A DNA stretch of 57,897 nt, counting the filler, from Asterionella formosa (Eukaryota), in assembly GCA_002256025.1 (NCBI GenBank). It is 8 parts of 8 records of this genome, joined end to end, with 100 filler letters (N's around TTAATTAATTAA, not from the genome) between each part and the next. Parts side by side here need not be neighbours in the genome. Positions count along the whole stretch, not along the records: positions 21,784 to 28,936 come from NKIB01012515.1; 7 more parts are not named here. The stretch is one strand, 5' to 3'. The position numbers and the translations under genes are program-made. The notes under the pieces are model-generated. The model was given only the letters and a program-made list of their open reading frames with translations. It ran no database searches and was not told where the DNA came from. The stretch's first letter is position 1, and every line of letters begins with the position of its first letter. Positions 13,101 to 47,400 of the stretch are shown piece after piece.

Positions 13101-13125
13101 ATGTTGAAAACGGGAACAACTTTTA

Positions 13126-14423
13126 GGGTCGTTCTTATCATTTTTTTTCGTGTATCACGGAATTTGAATTTTTTTGAAAATGTATCAGCAACGGTAACTC
13201 GATTTGAACTGAATTTCATTCATTCCAAAAGTGTCACTGTATCACTAATTTGTGATCACATTGTATCATGGAGTAAAATGAATCTTCAACGGCAACAGGC
13301 TGGCGAAGATCATGTGTATATCCCTCCAGAATATAATGATGGTCTTGATATCAAGCAACAACAAAATATAATTACCGGGAAACTAAATATAATATTAAAA
13401 ACACACATTTGCATGAATCATGTCGTCGCCATTTGATTTACTTGATGATAATGACGATGACAGTAGTGATCTTGATTTCTTCTTCCTCTGTCATTTAACT
13501 AAGGAAGCAGAGGAAAAAGAACACTCATCCAAACGACAAAGGCGACGCTGTAAACGGCAGCTTCAGTCATCTGAACGACGACGACAACGAAGGCACAAGT
13601 GGCACCACGAAAGAATCTCCTGGCAATCACATGTCGAGAAACTCAATCACGAGATTGCTTTCGAGAAGACATACAGAATGTCACACAGAGCATTCAAAAA
13701 ACTCACCTCCATGCTGGAAATTCAGATTGCAGGGAATTATTCCAAATGTGGCACTTCTGAGCCCATAATTCCCGAAATTGTGGTAGCCATTGGTTTGCGA
13801 TGGCTGGCTGGTGGCAGTTACATCGACATTCGTCATGCCTACGGTTGTAGCATTGCTTCACTTTATCGATGTCGTGATTTGTTCATTGATGCTGTACTAA
13901 ACTGTGAAGAACTCGAAATTATTTTTCCAAAAGAAAAAGAAGAATTTATCAAATTGGCTTCCAGCTTTGAATGCAAAAGCTCAGAGGGCGTGATGAGAGG
14001 ATGTGTTGGTGCTATTGACGGCTTCCTTGCCACCATCAACCGCCCGACTATAGTTGAAAGTGGCAACAACCCTGGTTCATTTTTTTCCGGTCACTACATG
14101 ACTTATGGAATCAATGTCCAGGCTGTTTGTGATGCTGACTCAAGATTTATTTATTTTGGTGTAATTGCACCGGGAAAATGCAGTGACCAAGTAGCTTTTG
14201 AAAAAACTTCCATTTTCGATCAAGTTGCAGCATTCAACACAGGTTTTTATCTGGTCGGCGATGCAGCTTACACATTGTCTGATGTAATGCTTGTTCCCTT
14301 TGTTGGCTCACAACGTGATGATCCAACACAGGATACATTTAACTTTTTCCTTTCACAGCTAAGGATAAGAATAGAAATGGCATTTGGTCTTCTTCAGACA
14401 AAATGGTGTGTTCTGAAAAAAAA
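13126..14423 (+). mobile_element. PIF/Harbinger DNA transposon, copy 1 (left end + transposase; truncated by the scaffold end)
   Basis: Starts TTA|GGGTCGTTCTTATCATTTTTTTTCGTG, where homology to copy 2 (45794) begins. TTA target and GGG terminus are typical of PIF/Harbinger. Confidence 0.85.
13420..14423 (+). CDS. Harbinger DDE transposase (DDE_Tnp_4 / HARBI1-like), 3' partial
   Basis: YRMS..F..L, LRWLAGGSY, GCVGAIDG, GINVQAVCDAD, SD, YLVGDAAY and FNFFLSQLRIRIEMAFGLLQTKW. Frame is open to the contig end. Confidence 0.92.
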
Positions 14424-21613: not shown

Positions 21614-21783
21614 GTTCTCGTCCCATCACCTCATGTACCCTTATGGTACCTGGTACTACTTACTTACTAACAGTTATACTTAANNNNNNNNNNNNNNNNN
21701 NNNNNNNNNNNNNNNNNNNNNNNNNNNTTAATTAATTAANNNNNNNNNNNNNNNNNNNNNNNNNNNNNNNNNNNNNNNNNNNN

Positions 21784-22485: not shown

Positions 22486-22654
22486 TGACTTCTCTTTCAA
22501 GTGATTCTGAGCCCAAAACGCTTATATCTGCGCATTCTTCAGTTGGTTTCTCCTGCTCCTTTGTTCCCAGAGCCATTTTCTAAAACCAATTCATTTTCTT
22601 GTCCCAGTGACAGTGTCAAACTTCTTTCAGCAAACTTCATTGTATATTCTTTCA

Positions 22655-22850
22655 TTGTTACCCAGTATTGCCCCTTGAGACAATTGCCCGGTCCTTTTTT
22701 TCTCTCTTTCTTCTTTCAGCAAGCTTCAATGCATTTTCTTTCATTGTTACCCGGCATTGCCCCTTGAGACAATTGCCCGGTCCTTTTTTAAATCTCTCTT
22801 TCTTTTCTTTATTACCCAGTATTGCCCACTGAGACAATCGCCTGGCCTAT
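22655..22850 (+). repeat. Three ~40-bp direct repeats in the copia 5' UTR
   Basis: TTGTTACCCAGTATTGCCCCTTGAGACAATTGCCCGGTCC at about 22655, 22744 and 22809, separated by pyrimidine tracts. Confidence 0.85.
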
Positions 22851-23319
22851 TTTTTCACTTTTTCTTAATTCTCTTCTTTTATCACTGCTTTCTTATCTTT
22901 CCCATACACTCCCACTTCCTTGCAACAATGTCAGTATCCACTACATCTAAGCCGCGTATTACGTGAAGTGACCATCAAGTAAATAAGCCTAGTTGATTTT
23001 GAATGGATCACATGAATTAGTTGAATACATCAAAATGCTTACTTGAATGTATCTATATATTATCTGAATACATCACGTTCATTTTTTGATCAGAGTATCA
23101 TGCATGCATTCCTGATCATCACTATATTACATGATCACCTTCACATAATTATTTGAAATCCTTCACGTAATTATTTGAAATCCTTCACTTAATTCTGTAA
23201 TTTAGTTCACATTGCCTTATGATTTTTTTCACGTAATTCTATAATATAGTTCACGTAATGTATTAAATTTGTTTATGTAATTTAAAAGTACAATCAAATA
23301 TGTTGATTTCTTATTCAAC

Positions 23320-24223
23320 TGCCGGTATTTCACATTACATGGGAAACAAATCTCGATGTGCAATCAAACAAAGCAGTTCTTTCAGAATGGCATCTTCAGT
23401 CTTGAGAAGGCAGGCATCATGAGACGTCTGTAAGGACAATGCAAGACAAACAGAAACCGTTCATTCTGAATGAAAAAATTATTCATTCTTGAAAAGGCAT
23501 CATGGTGCGAGATCGCAACAGGAATGTATCACACTGGCTTTCTCCTTGTCCTTGAAATGACTTCTTCATTGACCTGCAAAGGTTTACAAAAGAACAGTGT
23601 GTCAGTAATTCATTTAATAGAGCTAGCAACAGCAGAAAGCAACACATACATGTGCTATTCAAATGTTTCACGGAGCAGTCAAATTGACAGCAAGACACCG
23701 GCATTAGCCAGCCACCAGGCAGCACCGCAACTCACTGATGCATTCAAAATAATGCTCCTGTTGTGAAATGGACAGCAAAAATGTAAAATAAATGTAGAGA
23801 ACAATAATAGAACCACGTGATTTATCGCTCGCTTTGCTGATGTGACGACAAAAACTGAGGATTAAGCTTACCTTAGCTAGTAAAATCTTCCATTGCCGGT
23901 CTCTATATTGCATCATTTCACCTTCTATCAATCCTGCTTTCAAAATAACACCTATTTTCTGAAAAGGCCTGTTATAATGTCAAATGAATGTTGAGAACAG
24001 CAGCATATCATTATGAATTATCCTTCGCTTGGTGATATGATAGCAAAAATACCAAGCAAATAAATCTTACCTTAAAAGCATCCATTGCGGACCATCTCAA
24101 TGTTGCATCATTCCACCTTCTGTTTTTGGTGCAACAAACATATGTGAGCTGATAAAAGATGTGTTTGTAGTAAGGCAGCTGAAAATCTGGAAGGGGGATG
24201 CTAGTTGTAAGGGTCGTCCCCAT
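23320..24223 (-). pseudogene. Decayed multi-exon gene-like cargo of unknown function
   Basis: Several AG|GTAAG donors and ...ACAG acceptors. Two related exon segments (EGGMMQH.DGPQWMLL and EGEMMQYRDRQWKILL). In-frame stops. Confidence 0.35.
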
Positions 24224-24499
24224 GTTGAAAATTAATTGTTAACAGTGGTGTTGAATGTTGGTGTTTTTATGAATTCAGATGGTCAAAAATCCTGGCGTAG
24301 CCATGACTTCCTCTTTGTACCAACAGAACCTACAATCTACACGAAAAAATCTGGCGCAGTCTTGCTAAGAACAATTTCGTCGGGACAAATTTCTGAGGCT
24401 ACAACTGTGACTTGAACAAATATGACAAGAGGGAGAGGACACAGCCAATAGTTACTACTCCTAATTGCACATGCACTCAATGATCTACCATTAGCCTCG

Positions 24500-25070
24500 T
24501 CCTACTATAGTAAAAAAATACGCCTTGATTTTATATTGAAAACAATCAACTGATGAGTTAACCATTTCACTCGCATGATGAAATTTTAATCTGTTGTGTC
24601 TTCCTCAATTCTGTGTGATTCGTACATTCAGAGCATTGTAGCAACTGCGTGGCAACCCATCGGTCCCATGCTTGTTCCGCCTAAAAAGAGCTCTTGGATC
24701 CCTTGAGTGTCAGAGTGTCACTGACTCCATATGACGTTTTTCTCCTTCTCAGTTCATCTAGAATGGCTTCTGTTACTGAAATCACTCCATCTGGCCCTAG
24801 CTAATCGGTTTCCAGTCAAATACAGTTTGGTCACAGCGCACCCTCTCCTGATCCCATCAGCCAACGCCATGGCTTGTCCTTCTTTCCACATGTGATTCCC
24901 TGCCAGCCAAGTAGAGCGTATGAAAGGCATATCCAAACAAAGCACATGCCTATGATCTAATCCCATCATCGCCGACTTGGTTGAATCCAAGATCCAACGA
25001 TCCCAAAGCGCGGTGTGCTGAAATCCCGACAGCCACTGTATTAAAACATACCTTCATTGCCCAAGTTCTT
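24500..25070 (-). pseudogene. Leucine-rich repeat (RNI-like) gene fragment carried as cargo
   Basis: ALADGIRRGCAVTKLYLTGNRL and GIQELFLGGTSMGPMGCHAVATML fit the RNI-like LRR consensus LxxLxLxxNxIGxxG; frameshifted. Confidence 0.45.
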
Positions 25071-28000
25071 GTAACCTGGTTTGAGAATGGAAAGATTTGA
25101 ATTCTACAGCAGGGCCACTTTGACTACTAAGCGTGCGTCCGATGACTGCAATCCTCGGCTTGCTGTGATAGTCAATCTGCCAATCGTGAGTACGGATGGA
25201 GTATTTGAGGGAAAAAAGTGCCAAGGGGTTAGAACAACTGAGCCACGACACAGCGCAAGACAACAACAAGCACTCGGGGTGCTTGTACCAGTACTTAAAT
25301 TGGTCAGCTATCGTCACATGAGTGCTTCTGATAAGCGCTGAAGGACACTCTCTCGAGTCGGCGTTGCTTTGGCGTGCGTAGTGCGAGCTCAATTTGCCAA
25401 TTTTACATTGACAATGCGCACTTACTTCAGCCTACAGCGGCGATGTTTATGGTTGCATCAATTTGGTGCATGAGGATGGCGAAAACTCTTTTCACTGTCA
25501 TTTCTTGGCCGATTCATACCTTCTTGGCATATGTACCATACATTACTTGAGTTGTCTTTCGCAATGATTTATCCTCTAAAACAATTTTATCTTGAACTTT
25601 TAAAATATGTAGTTGTAACATCAACTAGTTTTGTCTTGCAAATCACTGTATGATTCTGAACCATCACATGAAAACCTCGAAGAGAAGTCTTGTTCACTAT
25701 AATAGTTCATATTTTTTACGTGAAGTGCACAACTATAAACTGTAGATTGTCCATGCATGAAATAAGACACCACAAATATCCTTACTATTTCACAAATAAA
25801 GATCTGTGTAGTAAATGAATTAGCCACGAGAGCAGGATATTAGTCGAACTTTGAAATGAATTATTTGAAACATCAACTAACTCAGTCTCGAGTTCAAAGT
25901 TCATTGTGAAAACTTCACATGAAACCGTTAAAACTTCACATGAAGCCGTTAAAAGTAACCTTTTTAACGGGAAGAGTGGCATTAATTCATGTCAAGTACC
26001 CCATCATTAACACTCTTACGTAAATGAAATTTCGAAAAGTGGCGTATTTCGCGGCTTAGATGTACTATTACTACTATTCTACCTACCAAGTTTGGCCAAG
26101 TGACCACTGGTACTGTTGTCAAACGGTACTCTGGTGGTCAACTGAATGATGACTTTACTATCACCAAGAAACCAATGTGGTCTCCTTACCAGATCCGTTC
26201 AGATGATTCCAGGGACATCAAGACTGCATTTTAGTTTTTTACTCAAAAACGTGAAAAGGTATACAATGGACCCAATGGTGACCCTATCAACAATCTCACT
26301 CCTGCTCAGCTCTGCACTCTTATTTACAATGATGCAGAGACTGGCGGTGTGGACCCTTTCCTCTATGCCCCTGACAGTTCTGGTAAAGTTTGGTGTATGA
26401 CCAGACACCATACTTGACTTACTTTTGAAGAGACAAAGAAATATGTTGATCATTGTATTGGTCTCAAGACATTCACACCAGACATTGACACTAAAACTGG
26501 AAATCCCACACCTGATTCTCTCACCAAGTCACGTCAGATTTTTGATGATCAGGCATTGGATGATTCTTCCCACCTCTGGCGTCTGATTGTTTCCTACATT
26601 TCCCCAAACCTCTTAACAGGTCTCCTTGAACGTCTCGAAGATCATGGCAATCGTGGTCCAGGCCTCCTCCTCTGGATGGCCTTAATGGATGAAGTCACCT
26701 CTGGTTCACCTCAGGCAATGGATAGCATCTTGGAAAATTTTAAGAAGATCCAACTTTCTGATTACCCTGGCGAAAATGTCCGCCTCATGGTCCATGATAT
26801 TCAAGCTTCATTTAACCTACTAAAGAGTGGACAATGTCTTCCTATCACTGCCTCCAGCATTGTTGCTACCAAGCTCCTACTCTGTCAAGTTGAGGAATTT
26901 CGTGCTGTCTTCTATACAATCTCTGTCAAGATTGATACTGAAGAGCGGGTTCTCATGGGTAAAGATAATGCTGCCCTTGTCAAATTCCAAGCTACACCAA
27001 GTGGTGTCAAGACACTTCTTGATGTGGCACTCACTCAGTACAAATGTCTCATTGACAATGGATGATGGCCACCTTCCCAAACTGTTCCCAAGAAGCAGTC
27101 AGATTCCCTACCAGATGCATTCCAGGCTACAGTTTTTCCTACTGCTTTTCAAGCCCTTGCTGATGAACTTAAAGCCCTCCGCAAAGATTTTGAGACCAAG
27201 CCTAGTGGGGCTGGCCAAGACCTCTCTAAAACTACTTGCTACAAGTGTGGCAAAATTGGTCATCTTCGTCCTAACTTTCCTGACAAGACAACCACTTACC
27301 CTGAGAACTCTTGGCAAAATGTTCCTCCCACTGATGGAAAGTTTTCTATGACCAAAGATGGTCGCCAGTGGCATTGGTGCAACAATTGCCGTGGCAGGGA
27401 AGGGTGTTGGTCTACTACTCATGGTACTGAGGCTCACAAAGGGAGTCCCAAAACTGTTACCTTTACTGCTGCTGCCAACCTGGCTGGAGTTGCCGAGGAG
27501 TCTCCAGCAGCAGAAGATGGTGTTTTGATGTACAATCCTGCTGGTTTTGTTGCTTCTTGCTATGACCATGATTTCGATTGGTCTTCAATTGAACCTCCGG
27601 ACTTAACTCATCATCATCTTTCCCTTGAGAAAGATGAATTTTTTCAGTTTGGCTTTGGTATCCGTTCCAATAGTGTTGTCAATCCAATGTCTCCATCTGA
27701 CTTGGACATACACTTTCACCACTCCTCTCTTGTTGCCTCCTCATCTGGTTTGGTTCTTCCTTAGCCTCCTACGTCCCACTGTTTGTGCTCCCACTCTGAA
27801 TCAATGACACATTATGACTGCCCAAGTGTCTTTCTCATCAATGAAGGACCTTCCTTGGCATTCCTGGATTCCAATGACATCACTGGACGTTTTTCTGTCA
27901 TCTGGGACACTGGTGCCACTCGTCCTGTCAGTGGGTACACTGGTGACTTTATTGGCCCAATGATTATTCCCTCTACTCCTTTGTTACTTGGCGGCATTGC

Positions 28001-28667
28001 CTCTGGTCTGGTTGTTGAAGGAATTGGAACTGTCAAATGGTCTTTCTATTCTGATAATGGCACCCTCCTTACTCTTCATTTAAAGGCCTTTTATGTCCCT
28101 ACCTGCAAACAACGCTTGCTTTCTCCCCAGAAAATCTTTTGTCCTACTGAAAATGTCCGTGGTACTTTTATGATCTCTTCAGCACATGCCCAACTCTTAC
28201 TTGATGACTCCCCCATTCTCACTGTTCCCTATGACCCAATGCATGGGCTACCAACCAGCCAATATCTTCCTTGGCATTTTCGTCTTGGACATCTTAATTC
28301 TAATAATATTCAATGGCTTCTTTGTCAACCTTCTTTTGGCAACAGTCATAAGGTCCGTGCTGCTGCCCGTTACACTCCACCCAAATGTGCAGCTTGTGAA
28401 TATGGCAAGGCCCATCGTCGTCCTCTTGCATCTACCCTCTCTACACCTTCACCTGAGAGGGAGGGAGCTACAAAATTTGATGATTTATTCCCAGGTTCAG
28501 GTGTCTCAGTGGATCATTTTGAATCAAAGGTGCCGGGTCGTCTATACACCTCACGAGGTAAATCACAACTTGCCTCAACTTATAAAGGCGGTTGTATTTT
28601 TGTTGACCATGCATCTGGACTACTTTATGTCCGTCATCAAATCAGCTTTACTTCAGAAGAGACCATG

Positions 28668-28924
28668 AATGGATTTGTTTGTATGGATATTCCATGGTTG
28701 TTTATCTACCCACTGCTCTCTTGTGCTTGGTCCCCATTGAGATTTGGGTATGGCTATGCTTGATCACTGCAACGGCCATGAGTGGGTTATTGGTGGTCCG
28801 TAATGTGGTGGCTCCCTTGTTGAGCACAGATACAACCGGCAGTAAGGCAGGACCCCTCTTGATGGCGGTCATGGCTTCGCATGTTATCTTTTTGATTGTT
28901 TTGAAGTTGGCCTTTTATCAGTAA
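28668..28924 (+). pseudogene. 3' part of a Yip1-domain (YIPF1/2-like) gene, directly joined to the copia integrase
   Basis: WICLYGYSMVVYLPTALLCLVPIEIWVW...HVIFLIVLKLAFYQ* matches the YIPF1/2 C-terminal TM region. No 5' part is present. Confidence 0.7.
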
Positions 28925-29036
28925 CAATTTCAAAATNNNNNNNNNNNNNNNNNNNNNNNNNNNNNNNNNNNNNNNNNNNNTTAATTAATTAANNNNNNNN
29001 NNNNNNNNNNNNNNNNNNNNNNNNNNNNNNNNNNNN

Positions 29037-45700: not shown

Positions 45701-45793
45701 CCTTTGACCAAATAGGCTATAGATATGAACAATGGTTGATTGTAATCGATTTTAATCATGATTCCTAAAATGTTTTGTAGATAATGAGTTTTA

Positions 45794-47400
45794 GGGCCGT
45801 ACTTTTCATTTTTTTTCGTGTATGTATCACGAAATTTGAAAAATTTTGAAAATGTATCAGACATCAGCAATGGTCAATCGATTTGAAATGAATTTCATTC
45901 ATTCCAAAAGTGACACTGTATCACTAATTTGTGATCAAATTGTGTCATGGAGTATCATTGATCTTCAATGGCAACAGGCTGGCAAAGATCATATGTATAT
46001 CCCTCCAGAATATAATGATGGTCTTGATATCAAGCAGCAGCATAAAATATTATTATACTATATTATAATATAAACACACCATTGCATGATGGCTGAATCA
46101 TGTCATTGCCTTTTGAGTGACTTGATGATAACAATGATGACAGCAGTGATCTCGATTTCTTCATCTTCTGTCACTTAGCTAAGGAAGCAGAGGAACAATA
46201 AAACTCATCCAAAGGACAAAGGCATCACTGTAAGTGGCAGCATCACTCATCCAAACAACGATGACAACGAAGGCACAAGTAGCACCACCAAAGAATCTCC
46301 TGGCAATCACATGTCAAGAAACTCAATCACGAGATTGCTTTCAAGAAGACATACAGAATGTCAAACGGATCATTGAAAATACTCACCTCCATGCTGGAAA
46401 TTCAGATTGCAGGGAATTATTCCAAATAGGGCACTTCTGAGCCCATAATTCCTGAAATTGTGGTAGCCATTGGATTGCAATTGTTGGCTGGTGGCAGTTA
46501 CATCAACATTTGTCATGCCTAGCTACAGCTGTAGCATTGCTTCACTTTATCAATGTCATGATTTGTTCATTGATGCTGAATTAAACTGTGAAGAACTCGA
46601 AATTATTTTTCCAGAAGAAAAAGAAGAATTTATCAAAATGGCTTCCAGCTTTGAATGCAAAATCTCCGAGGGCATGATGAGAGGATGTGTTGGTGCTATT
46701 GACGGCTTCCTATCCACCATCAACCGCCCGACTTTAGTTGAAAGTGGCAACAACCCTGGTTCATTTTTCCGGTCGCTACATGACTTATGGAATCAACGTC
46801 CAGGCTGTTTGTGACGCTGACTAAAGATTTATTTATTTTGGTGTGATTGCACCAGGAAAATGCAGTGACCAAGTAGCTTTTGAACGAACTTCTATTTTCG
46901 ATCGAGTTGCAGCATTCGATACAGGTTTTTATCTGGTCGGCGATGCAGCATACACATTGTCTGATGTAATGCTCATTCTCTTTGTTGGCTCACAACGTGA
47001 TGATCCAACACAGGATACATTTAACTTTTTCCTTTCACAGCTGAGGATAAGAATGGAAATGGGAATTGGTATTTTTCAGACAAAATGGTGTGTTCTAAAT
47101 AAAACCTATCAACAAGCTTCGAAACATCTGCACGCATTATTGATTCATGTGCTTGACTTCATAATTATGTGTTTAATGAGAAGATAATTGATAACAAGAG
47201 AGATTATGGATGATAATCAAACACTTACAGAGATATTCTAGTCAGTTTGTCATCCCTTGGCCGAGGCTACTTACTGACTGTGGAACCCTTGTGTATATTG
47301 CCTGGAAGCTCTGTGATGCGGGATGTGATTCTTACCAGATTTCGAGCCTTGCAACAACCTCCTGTCAATATCGAGAGGAGTAGGAAAAATTACTGAAATT
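45794..47400 (+). mobile_element. PIF/Harbinger copy 2; transposase pseudogene (46100 to about 47395)
   Basis: Starts TTA|GGGCCGTACTTTTCATTTTTTTTCGTG. Colinear with 13126-14423 but with stops, frameshifts and many CG>TG/CA changes. Confidence 0.92.

Follow-up and report, generated by a model that had tools for sequence, protein, structure and literature searches.

A probable Pack-type derivative of a PlavakaB-type transposon with a captured leucine-rich repeat gene fragment in Asterionella formosa

The window analysed here is a stretch of 57,897 nucleotides from the Asterionella formosa assembly GCA_002256025.1, composed of contigs chained by N spacers (21684-21783, 28937-29036 and others); genes on either side of a spacer need not be neighbours. 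One of these contigs, C12515 (NKIB01012515.1), carries a DNA element inserted into the gag gene of a copia retrotransposon. This element is very probably a non-autonomous, Pack-type derivative of a PlavakaB-type cut-and-paste transposon of the CMCT/EnSpm clade. It has the features by which Pack-TYPE elements are recognised, namely terminal inverted repeats (TIRs) with a target site duplication (TSD), no transposase, and a fragment of a host coding gene, here one with leucine-rich repeats (LRR). The autonomous partner, the pre-capture form, the donor gene and the amplified product occur together in one genome, which makes the record unusually complete. The element is real, but of an expected kind: it represents no new superfamily and shows no selected cargo. 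Its significance is modest: Pack-type capture, known from plant CACTA and Mutator-like (MULE) elements and from TIR elements of animals, is extended to the Plavaka lineage, here of a probable diatom.

Element ends and insertion site

The coordinates of all features are given in Table 1. With the adjoining TA included, the two TIR arms (22942-22963 and 26043-26064) are 91% complementary, and the perfect 13-mer at their tips has only two matches in the whole window. Across the genome, 602 exact TIR cores were counted, compared with one for the reversed control. The TIR pair and the boundaries given in an earlier note, which was made from the sequence of this DNA alone, are therefore sound (13/13, then 18/20).

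The copia flanks on either side of the element are mutually in frame. Of 29 matches to the downstream flank, ten that extended as far as the insertion site were picked, and the junction was fetched from these other copia copies; every one of the ten is uninterrupted with a single TA. Such empty sites demonstrate an insertion accompanied by a 2-bp duplication and agree with the TA noted earlier on both sides of this copy, as well as with the expectation that other copia copies have an uninterrupted gag. Excision in silico restores the gag frame, as had been claimed, though the interrupted gag also has in-frame stops of its own. The copia domains recognised (zinc knuckle, GAG-pre-integrase and Pol beta-barrel) all scored under the Pfam cut-offs.

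The subterminal arrays with a TTCAC core described by the earlier note are found at both ends. The left 400 bp contain eight cores and the right 450 bp six, where shuffled sequences have 0.8-1.0, and the enrichment at either end was reached by none of 2000 shuffles.

The transposase-bearing partner

The element itself is devoid of a recognisable transposase, as previously stated: 15 Plavaka open reading frames (ORFs) gave no tblastn match on it. The earlier note had proposed a search for an autonomous partner, and one was found in the same genome. The right-end TIR of the family lies upstream of a Plavaka ORF at seven loci (L103, L104, L105, L107, L109, L112 and L114), drawn from 20 stretches requested around Plavaka matches, which included a second Plavaka family. 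At L105, both TIRs and a TA TSD enclose a truncated transposase ORF, and at L040 the left end adjoins a transposase fragment. The flagged copy shares about 340 bp on the left and 350-400 bp on the right with these transposase-bearing copies. In L103, L104, L105, L109, L112 and L022, all of which bear transposase sequence, a stretch of about 210 bp in the right terminal region is tandemly duplicated, and a duplicated right end with two TIRs is also seen at L031:3526-3762.

The partner transposase belongs to PF18759 (42 bits against a cut-off of 26.3). The representative protein P0001 has the motifs D, D, C(2)C, H(3)H and E in this order (residues 253, 362, 384, 618 and 640), assigned by motif order and not by alignment to the figure in PMC12730594. 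The contig C14023 (L106/L195) carries, in order, the right subterminal region with the TIR tip missing, the 5' part of the transposase and the 3' portion of an oxygenase-like gene, followed by another gene, a repeated 3' region and the left TIR. The 3' part of the oxygenase-like ORF is thus located between the two ends of the element.

In full, this ORF encodes 461 amino acids (L103:7038-8420, G000:C12103), and an alignment of 15 sequences reveals conserved Q-x-x-H-x-D, RGD-x-V-H-x-G and R-x-H-x-Y motifs, a set which we take to be typical of 2-oxoglutarate (2OG)-Fe(II) oxygenases. A structure atlas match to 2OG oxygenases (0.91; recognition 2261) is under the guide value of 2300, and the family assignment is not confirmed by it. 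Two structure predictions had a confidence too low to use (predicted local distance difference test scores of 32.5 and 38.2), and alignment-based searches of PDB and Pfam gave nothing relevant.

A further multi-piece gene is present in the autonomous element at L106:7516-9539. One of its pieces is 48% identical to an ORF downstream of the transposase of the second Plavaka family (L117:6128-7171). That family is also of high copy number (L077-L090, L117, L119-L121; protein P0002) and shares 58% protein identity with the first.

Family placement

PlavakaB elements of the CMCT clade are described as having a 2- or 3-bp TSD and 5'-CATCA..TGATG-3' termini (Kojima 2025, PMC12730594). The termini of the family studied here, CATCT..AGATG, agree with this consensus at four of five bases, and 25 of 28 left-right pairings have a 2-bp TSD and one further pairing a 3-bp match. 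The view that the terminal sequence falls outside the described superfamilies has to be abandoned, since the ends match PlavakaB and flank a PF18759 transposase. Likeness to PlavakaB (PMC12730594) extends to the CATC.. termini, the 2-bp TSD, the PF18759 transposase, and the C(2)C and H(3-4)H motifs that lie between its second D and the E. Unlike the fungal elements of that description, the present one comes from a probable diatom and is a non-autonomous copy with host cargo; in its partner, the place of TET/JBP is taken by an oxygenase-like gene that is non-TET.

A canonical EnSpm/CACTA element was considered and rejected, since it needs CAC..GTG termini and a 3-bp TSD, and the present family has CAT..ATG termini with a TSD of 2 bp. 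A search with PF02992 (Transposase_21) gave no match, but its control gave none either.

The autonomous partner, and not the flagged copy, resembles the giant Plavaka elements of red algae with the genes PAG1-3 (bioRxiv 10.1101/2025.02.11.637652) in carrying accessory genes; one of those in the partner has an HxD..H 2OG-oxygenase-like motif set. Unlike them, the partner has no methylase or SET gene that was seen.

The captured fragment and its donor

The RNI-like LRR fragment recognised in the earlier note has an intact, single-copy donor. It is an LRR_6 gene on contig C2483, with an ankyrin gene and a gene for a flavin oxidoreductase as its neighbours; beyond the captured part, the next best match is at 49%. 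The consensus of the captured piece is 91% identical to the donor over 751 nt and the window copy 86%. No family TIR was found within 7.5 kb around the donor. The piece comprises the end of one exon, a 126-nt intron and the start of the LRR exon; it is frameshifted and has lost the donor splice site. The element has kept the intron, whereas RNA contigs of two studies skip it (joint 25157-25300) and carry the donor allele; both facts indicate capture from genomic DNA. These RNA contigs come from four of the 11 listed runs and cannot distinguish transcription of the copy or family from DNA carry-over.

Among 20 loci chosen for carrying the core of the element while lying outside the LRR set, two (L151 and L159) retain an arrangement without LRR, in which the core is followed by about 90 bp and then by a tandem unit. 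This arrangement shows that the LRR piece replaced a short internal stretch.

The core and other interiors

Pack-type capture, as put forward in the earlier note, thus holds for the LRR segment, with its single-copy donor and pre-capture forms, and fails for the rest of the interior. The core had been read as a decayed multi-exon gene. A five-sequence core profile identifies the 3' region of the autonomous element (nhmmer E 5e-24; 0 of 20 shuffles listed), and window positions 23928-24414 align to it with a score of 143 against a shuffle maximum of 44. This homology implies that the core is element-borne and not host cargo. Joints in RNA contigs fit two minus-strand introns of the core once extra letters are placed (our reading, from one contig each, runs X10 and X7). 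Genome searches with the core (150 of 443 and 40 of 383 candidates scored) returned only family copies and older relatives at 71-78%, and no host donor; a comparison with longer proteins gave 445 candidates, none at E<=0.001.

Several interior types occur among family members, and one of them has been traced to a host gene. A sister subfamily (L032:931-1824 and 11 loci) has the same ends and core with a different module of 900 bp. This module has 44 matches, is present in 11 of the 20 core-bearing loci, and none of the 40 candidates scored, out of 112, was seen to be its donor. A further interior of 1.5 kb at L035 corresponds to a different high-copy repeat with 150 matches, which lacks a family TIR in all seven other loci checked; as host cargo it was rejected. 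Part of the 900-bp module resembles this repeat. At L033:6743-8210, a DUF6818 (PF20681) fragment borders on a right end of the family, and the left end was not found within the 8.7 kb examined.

These interiors raise the possibility that Plavaka derivatives in this alga act as a general Pack-type shuffling system, with many independent host captures and the multi-exon part among them. In another form, the proposal is one of several independent captures (LRR, possibly the 900-bp module and DUF6818), amplified to tens of copies and transcribed. The diversity of sequences between the same ends speaks for it. We nevertheless consider it rather doubtful in either form: the core shares homology with the 3' region of the element itself, the L035 interior is a high-copy repeat which the 900-bp module partly resembles, and a host donor was found for none of these other interiors. 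The variable cargo once expected among copies resolves into a few amplified subfamilies with interiors largely constant over about 50 copies. Were general shuffling true, small RNAs or chimeric transcripts from the captures could act back on the donor genes, and within the reach of the literature search no Pack system would have been reported earlier for diatoms or for the Plavaka lineage.

Amplification and decay

The derivative with a single traced capture has been amplified. The interior of the flagged copy has 48 matches at 82-97%, its own contig excluded (40 of 386 candidates scored), and family copies are 94.5-97.6% identical to their own consensus. The LRR-carrying subfamily comprises about 50 copies (54 contigs, one of which is the donor; a few may be duplicates). 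Of 34 copies tested, 30 had more than 650 nt of the LRR piece, and these were compared. Forty-eight differences from the donor are common to at least 85% of the 30 copies, including inactivating changes: a +4 and a -1 indel in 30/30 and loss of the intron GT in 29/30. The donor differs from the consensus by 6.8% and the copies by 4.0%, and later changes are even over the codon positions (170/172/144). The shared indels, the lost GT and the even codon-position changes mean that the piece was captured once, was inactivated early and then spread neutrally.

A copy number of about 50, together with family sequence in RNA libraries, might also be expected if the element had domesticated the LRR piece as a functional accessory gene. 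This is very improbable, and a protein function in particular is disfavoured, as all 30 copies are frameshifted, the splice donor is lost, substitutions are distributed evenly over codon positions and the spliced RNA contigs carry the donor allele.

Target site preference

The TSD of the family is a variable 2 bp with a preference for TA, and the earlier description of a TA TSD does not extend from this copy to the family as a whole. The 25 duplications of 2 bp are TA (12), AT (3), TT (3), TG (3), CA (2), AA (1) and GA (1), counts in which L048 and L064 may be one locus and from which the pairing filter missed L049 (AA), L056 (CA) and L164 (TA). Thirteen of the 25 are therefore not TA. TA lies outside 255 of the 602 TIR cores (42%, against a background of 6%), and 347 are not preceded by it.

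That the family represents a novel superfamily of TIR elements, or else a lineage specific for TA (Tc1/mariner, ESTA- or PHISTA-like), is scarcely credible: TA flanks the flagged copy and 42% of all ends, and ESTA and PHISTA with TA TSDs do exist (PMC12730594), but the 13 non-TA duplications and the 347 cores without TA contradict an obligatory TA, the ends flank a PF18759 transposase, and the termini match PlavakaB.

Interpretation and proposed mechanism

Some observations weigh against derivation from a PlavakaB-type transposon by a single capture. The assembly is fragmented, and not one complete autonomous copy was met that combines two perfect TIRs, a TSD and an entire transposase; the autonomous anatomy was tiled from L103, L105, L106/L195 and L110. 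The fifth terminal base is T and not the A of the text consensus, although PlavakaB-1_GyCo also starts with CATCT (PMC12730594), and membership in PlavakaB is suggested by terminus and TSD, not by a tree. The pairwise alignment to the autonomous element covers 487 of the 1348 bp of the core. Three of the 28 TSD pairings are without a 2-bp match (the inner duplicated end of L031, a TA/CA mismatch at L058 and, at L139, a degenerate end that matches over 3 bp), and six TA cases were ascertained through a search pattern containing TA. The tree of the LRR segment is star-like, with one of 28 inner branches starred, so that the single origin is indicated by shared indels. The capture junctions have no clear microhomology and do not discriminate the capture route.

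The following course of events would account for a Pack-type PlavakaB derivative. An internally deleted form probably first retained part of the element's own 3' region and about 340-400 bp of each end, with TIRs and subterminal repeats. About 90 bp of this form then gave way to 0.75 kb of genomic DNA from the LRR gene of the host. The most likely route is template switching while a break within the element was being repaired, which has also been proposed for multicopy Pack-TIRs (PMC8277862). The neighbouring-insertion model for plant Pack elements (PMC8903248) is a poorer fit, because the pre-capture form is continuous with both ends and with the flanking interior. The captured fragment lost its function, the product spread to about 50 copies, and one of these inserted 16 nt into the copia gag.

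EnSpm elements are the model for a transposase acting on TIRs and subterminal repeats. By analogy, we infer that the Plavaka transposase of full-length members binds these sequences in trans and may thereby mobilise the derivatives, leaving a 2-bp TSD with a preference for TA.

Comparison with other Pack systems

Plavaka has been described from fungi (PMC12730594) and red algae (bioRxiv 10.1101/2025.02.11.637652), and Pack-type capture from plants (PMC8903248) and animals (PMC8277862). A literature search to which most subscription journals and Repbase were out of reach found no publication on diatom Plavaka, Pack-TYPE elements or captured gene fragments.

Like the plant Pack-CACTA and Pack-TYPE elements (PMC8903248, PMC6379663), the present element is a non-autonomous member of the EnSpm clade with TIRs, a TSD, a captured chromosomal gene fragment and no transposase. 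It differs in its Plavaka ends and 2-bp TSD. Plant Pack-CACTA clusters are mostly of low copy number, whereas here one capture is present at about 50 copies, and the internal replacement of about 90 bp suits a repair-type capture better than the plant model (PMC8903248). In animals, multicopy Pack-TIRs (Tan et al. 2021, PMC8277862) share capture inside a TIR element, followed by recurrent transposition with distinct TSDs. They belong to another superfamily and other hosts, and the cargo here is pseudogenised without a sign of selection.

For genome annotation, about 50 pseudo-LRR fragments and a TA-looking TSD stem from one PlavakaB family.

Features of the window

Table 1. Features of the element and its insertion site (positions along the window)
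Feature	Position	Strand	Remarks
Whole element	22944-26062		3119 bp, on contig C12515 (7153 bp)
Copia host of the insertion: degenerate Ty1/copia-type gag-pol	22928..28763	+	Start codon 22928; interrupted after 16 nt; cut off by contig end
2-bp TSD (TA in this copy), left	22942..22943	.	Sequence; single TA at empty site in 10/10 copia copies fetched
Left TIR	22944..22963	+	13 bp perfect, 18/20; element's 3' end in the orientation of the autonomous partner
Left end common to transposase-bearing copies	22944..23283	+	84% to L105, 74% to L040
Subterminal array, six TTCAC-core units, exact 22-bp period	23135..23266	+	Repeat and shuffle analysis
Core: decayed spliced repeat-unit region	23284..24631	-	Putative introns ~23776-23871 and 23969-24070; RNA-contig joints
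Captured piece of host RNI-like LRR gene, 768 bp	24632..25399	-	Donor G000:C2483, L122:2778-3518
Remnant of ~250-bp tandem unit	25391..25543	+	Unit in pre-capture forms: L151 four matches, L159 one
Right end common to autonomous copies (81-91%)	25662..26062	-	Upstream of transposase there; subterminal TTCAC/GTGAA units
Right TIR	26043..26062	-	13/13, then 18/20
2-bp TSD (TA), right	26063..26064	.	Sequence; empty site

Upstream of the copia gag, the leader contains three imperfect direct repeats of 65-89 bp (window positions 22621-22866). Elsewhere in the window, a 1.3-kb direct repeat with 89% identity is located at 13121-14422 and 45789-47104.

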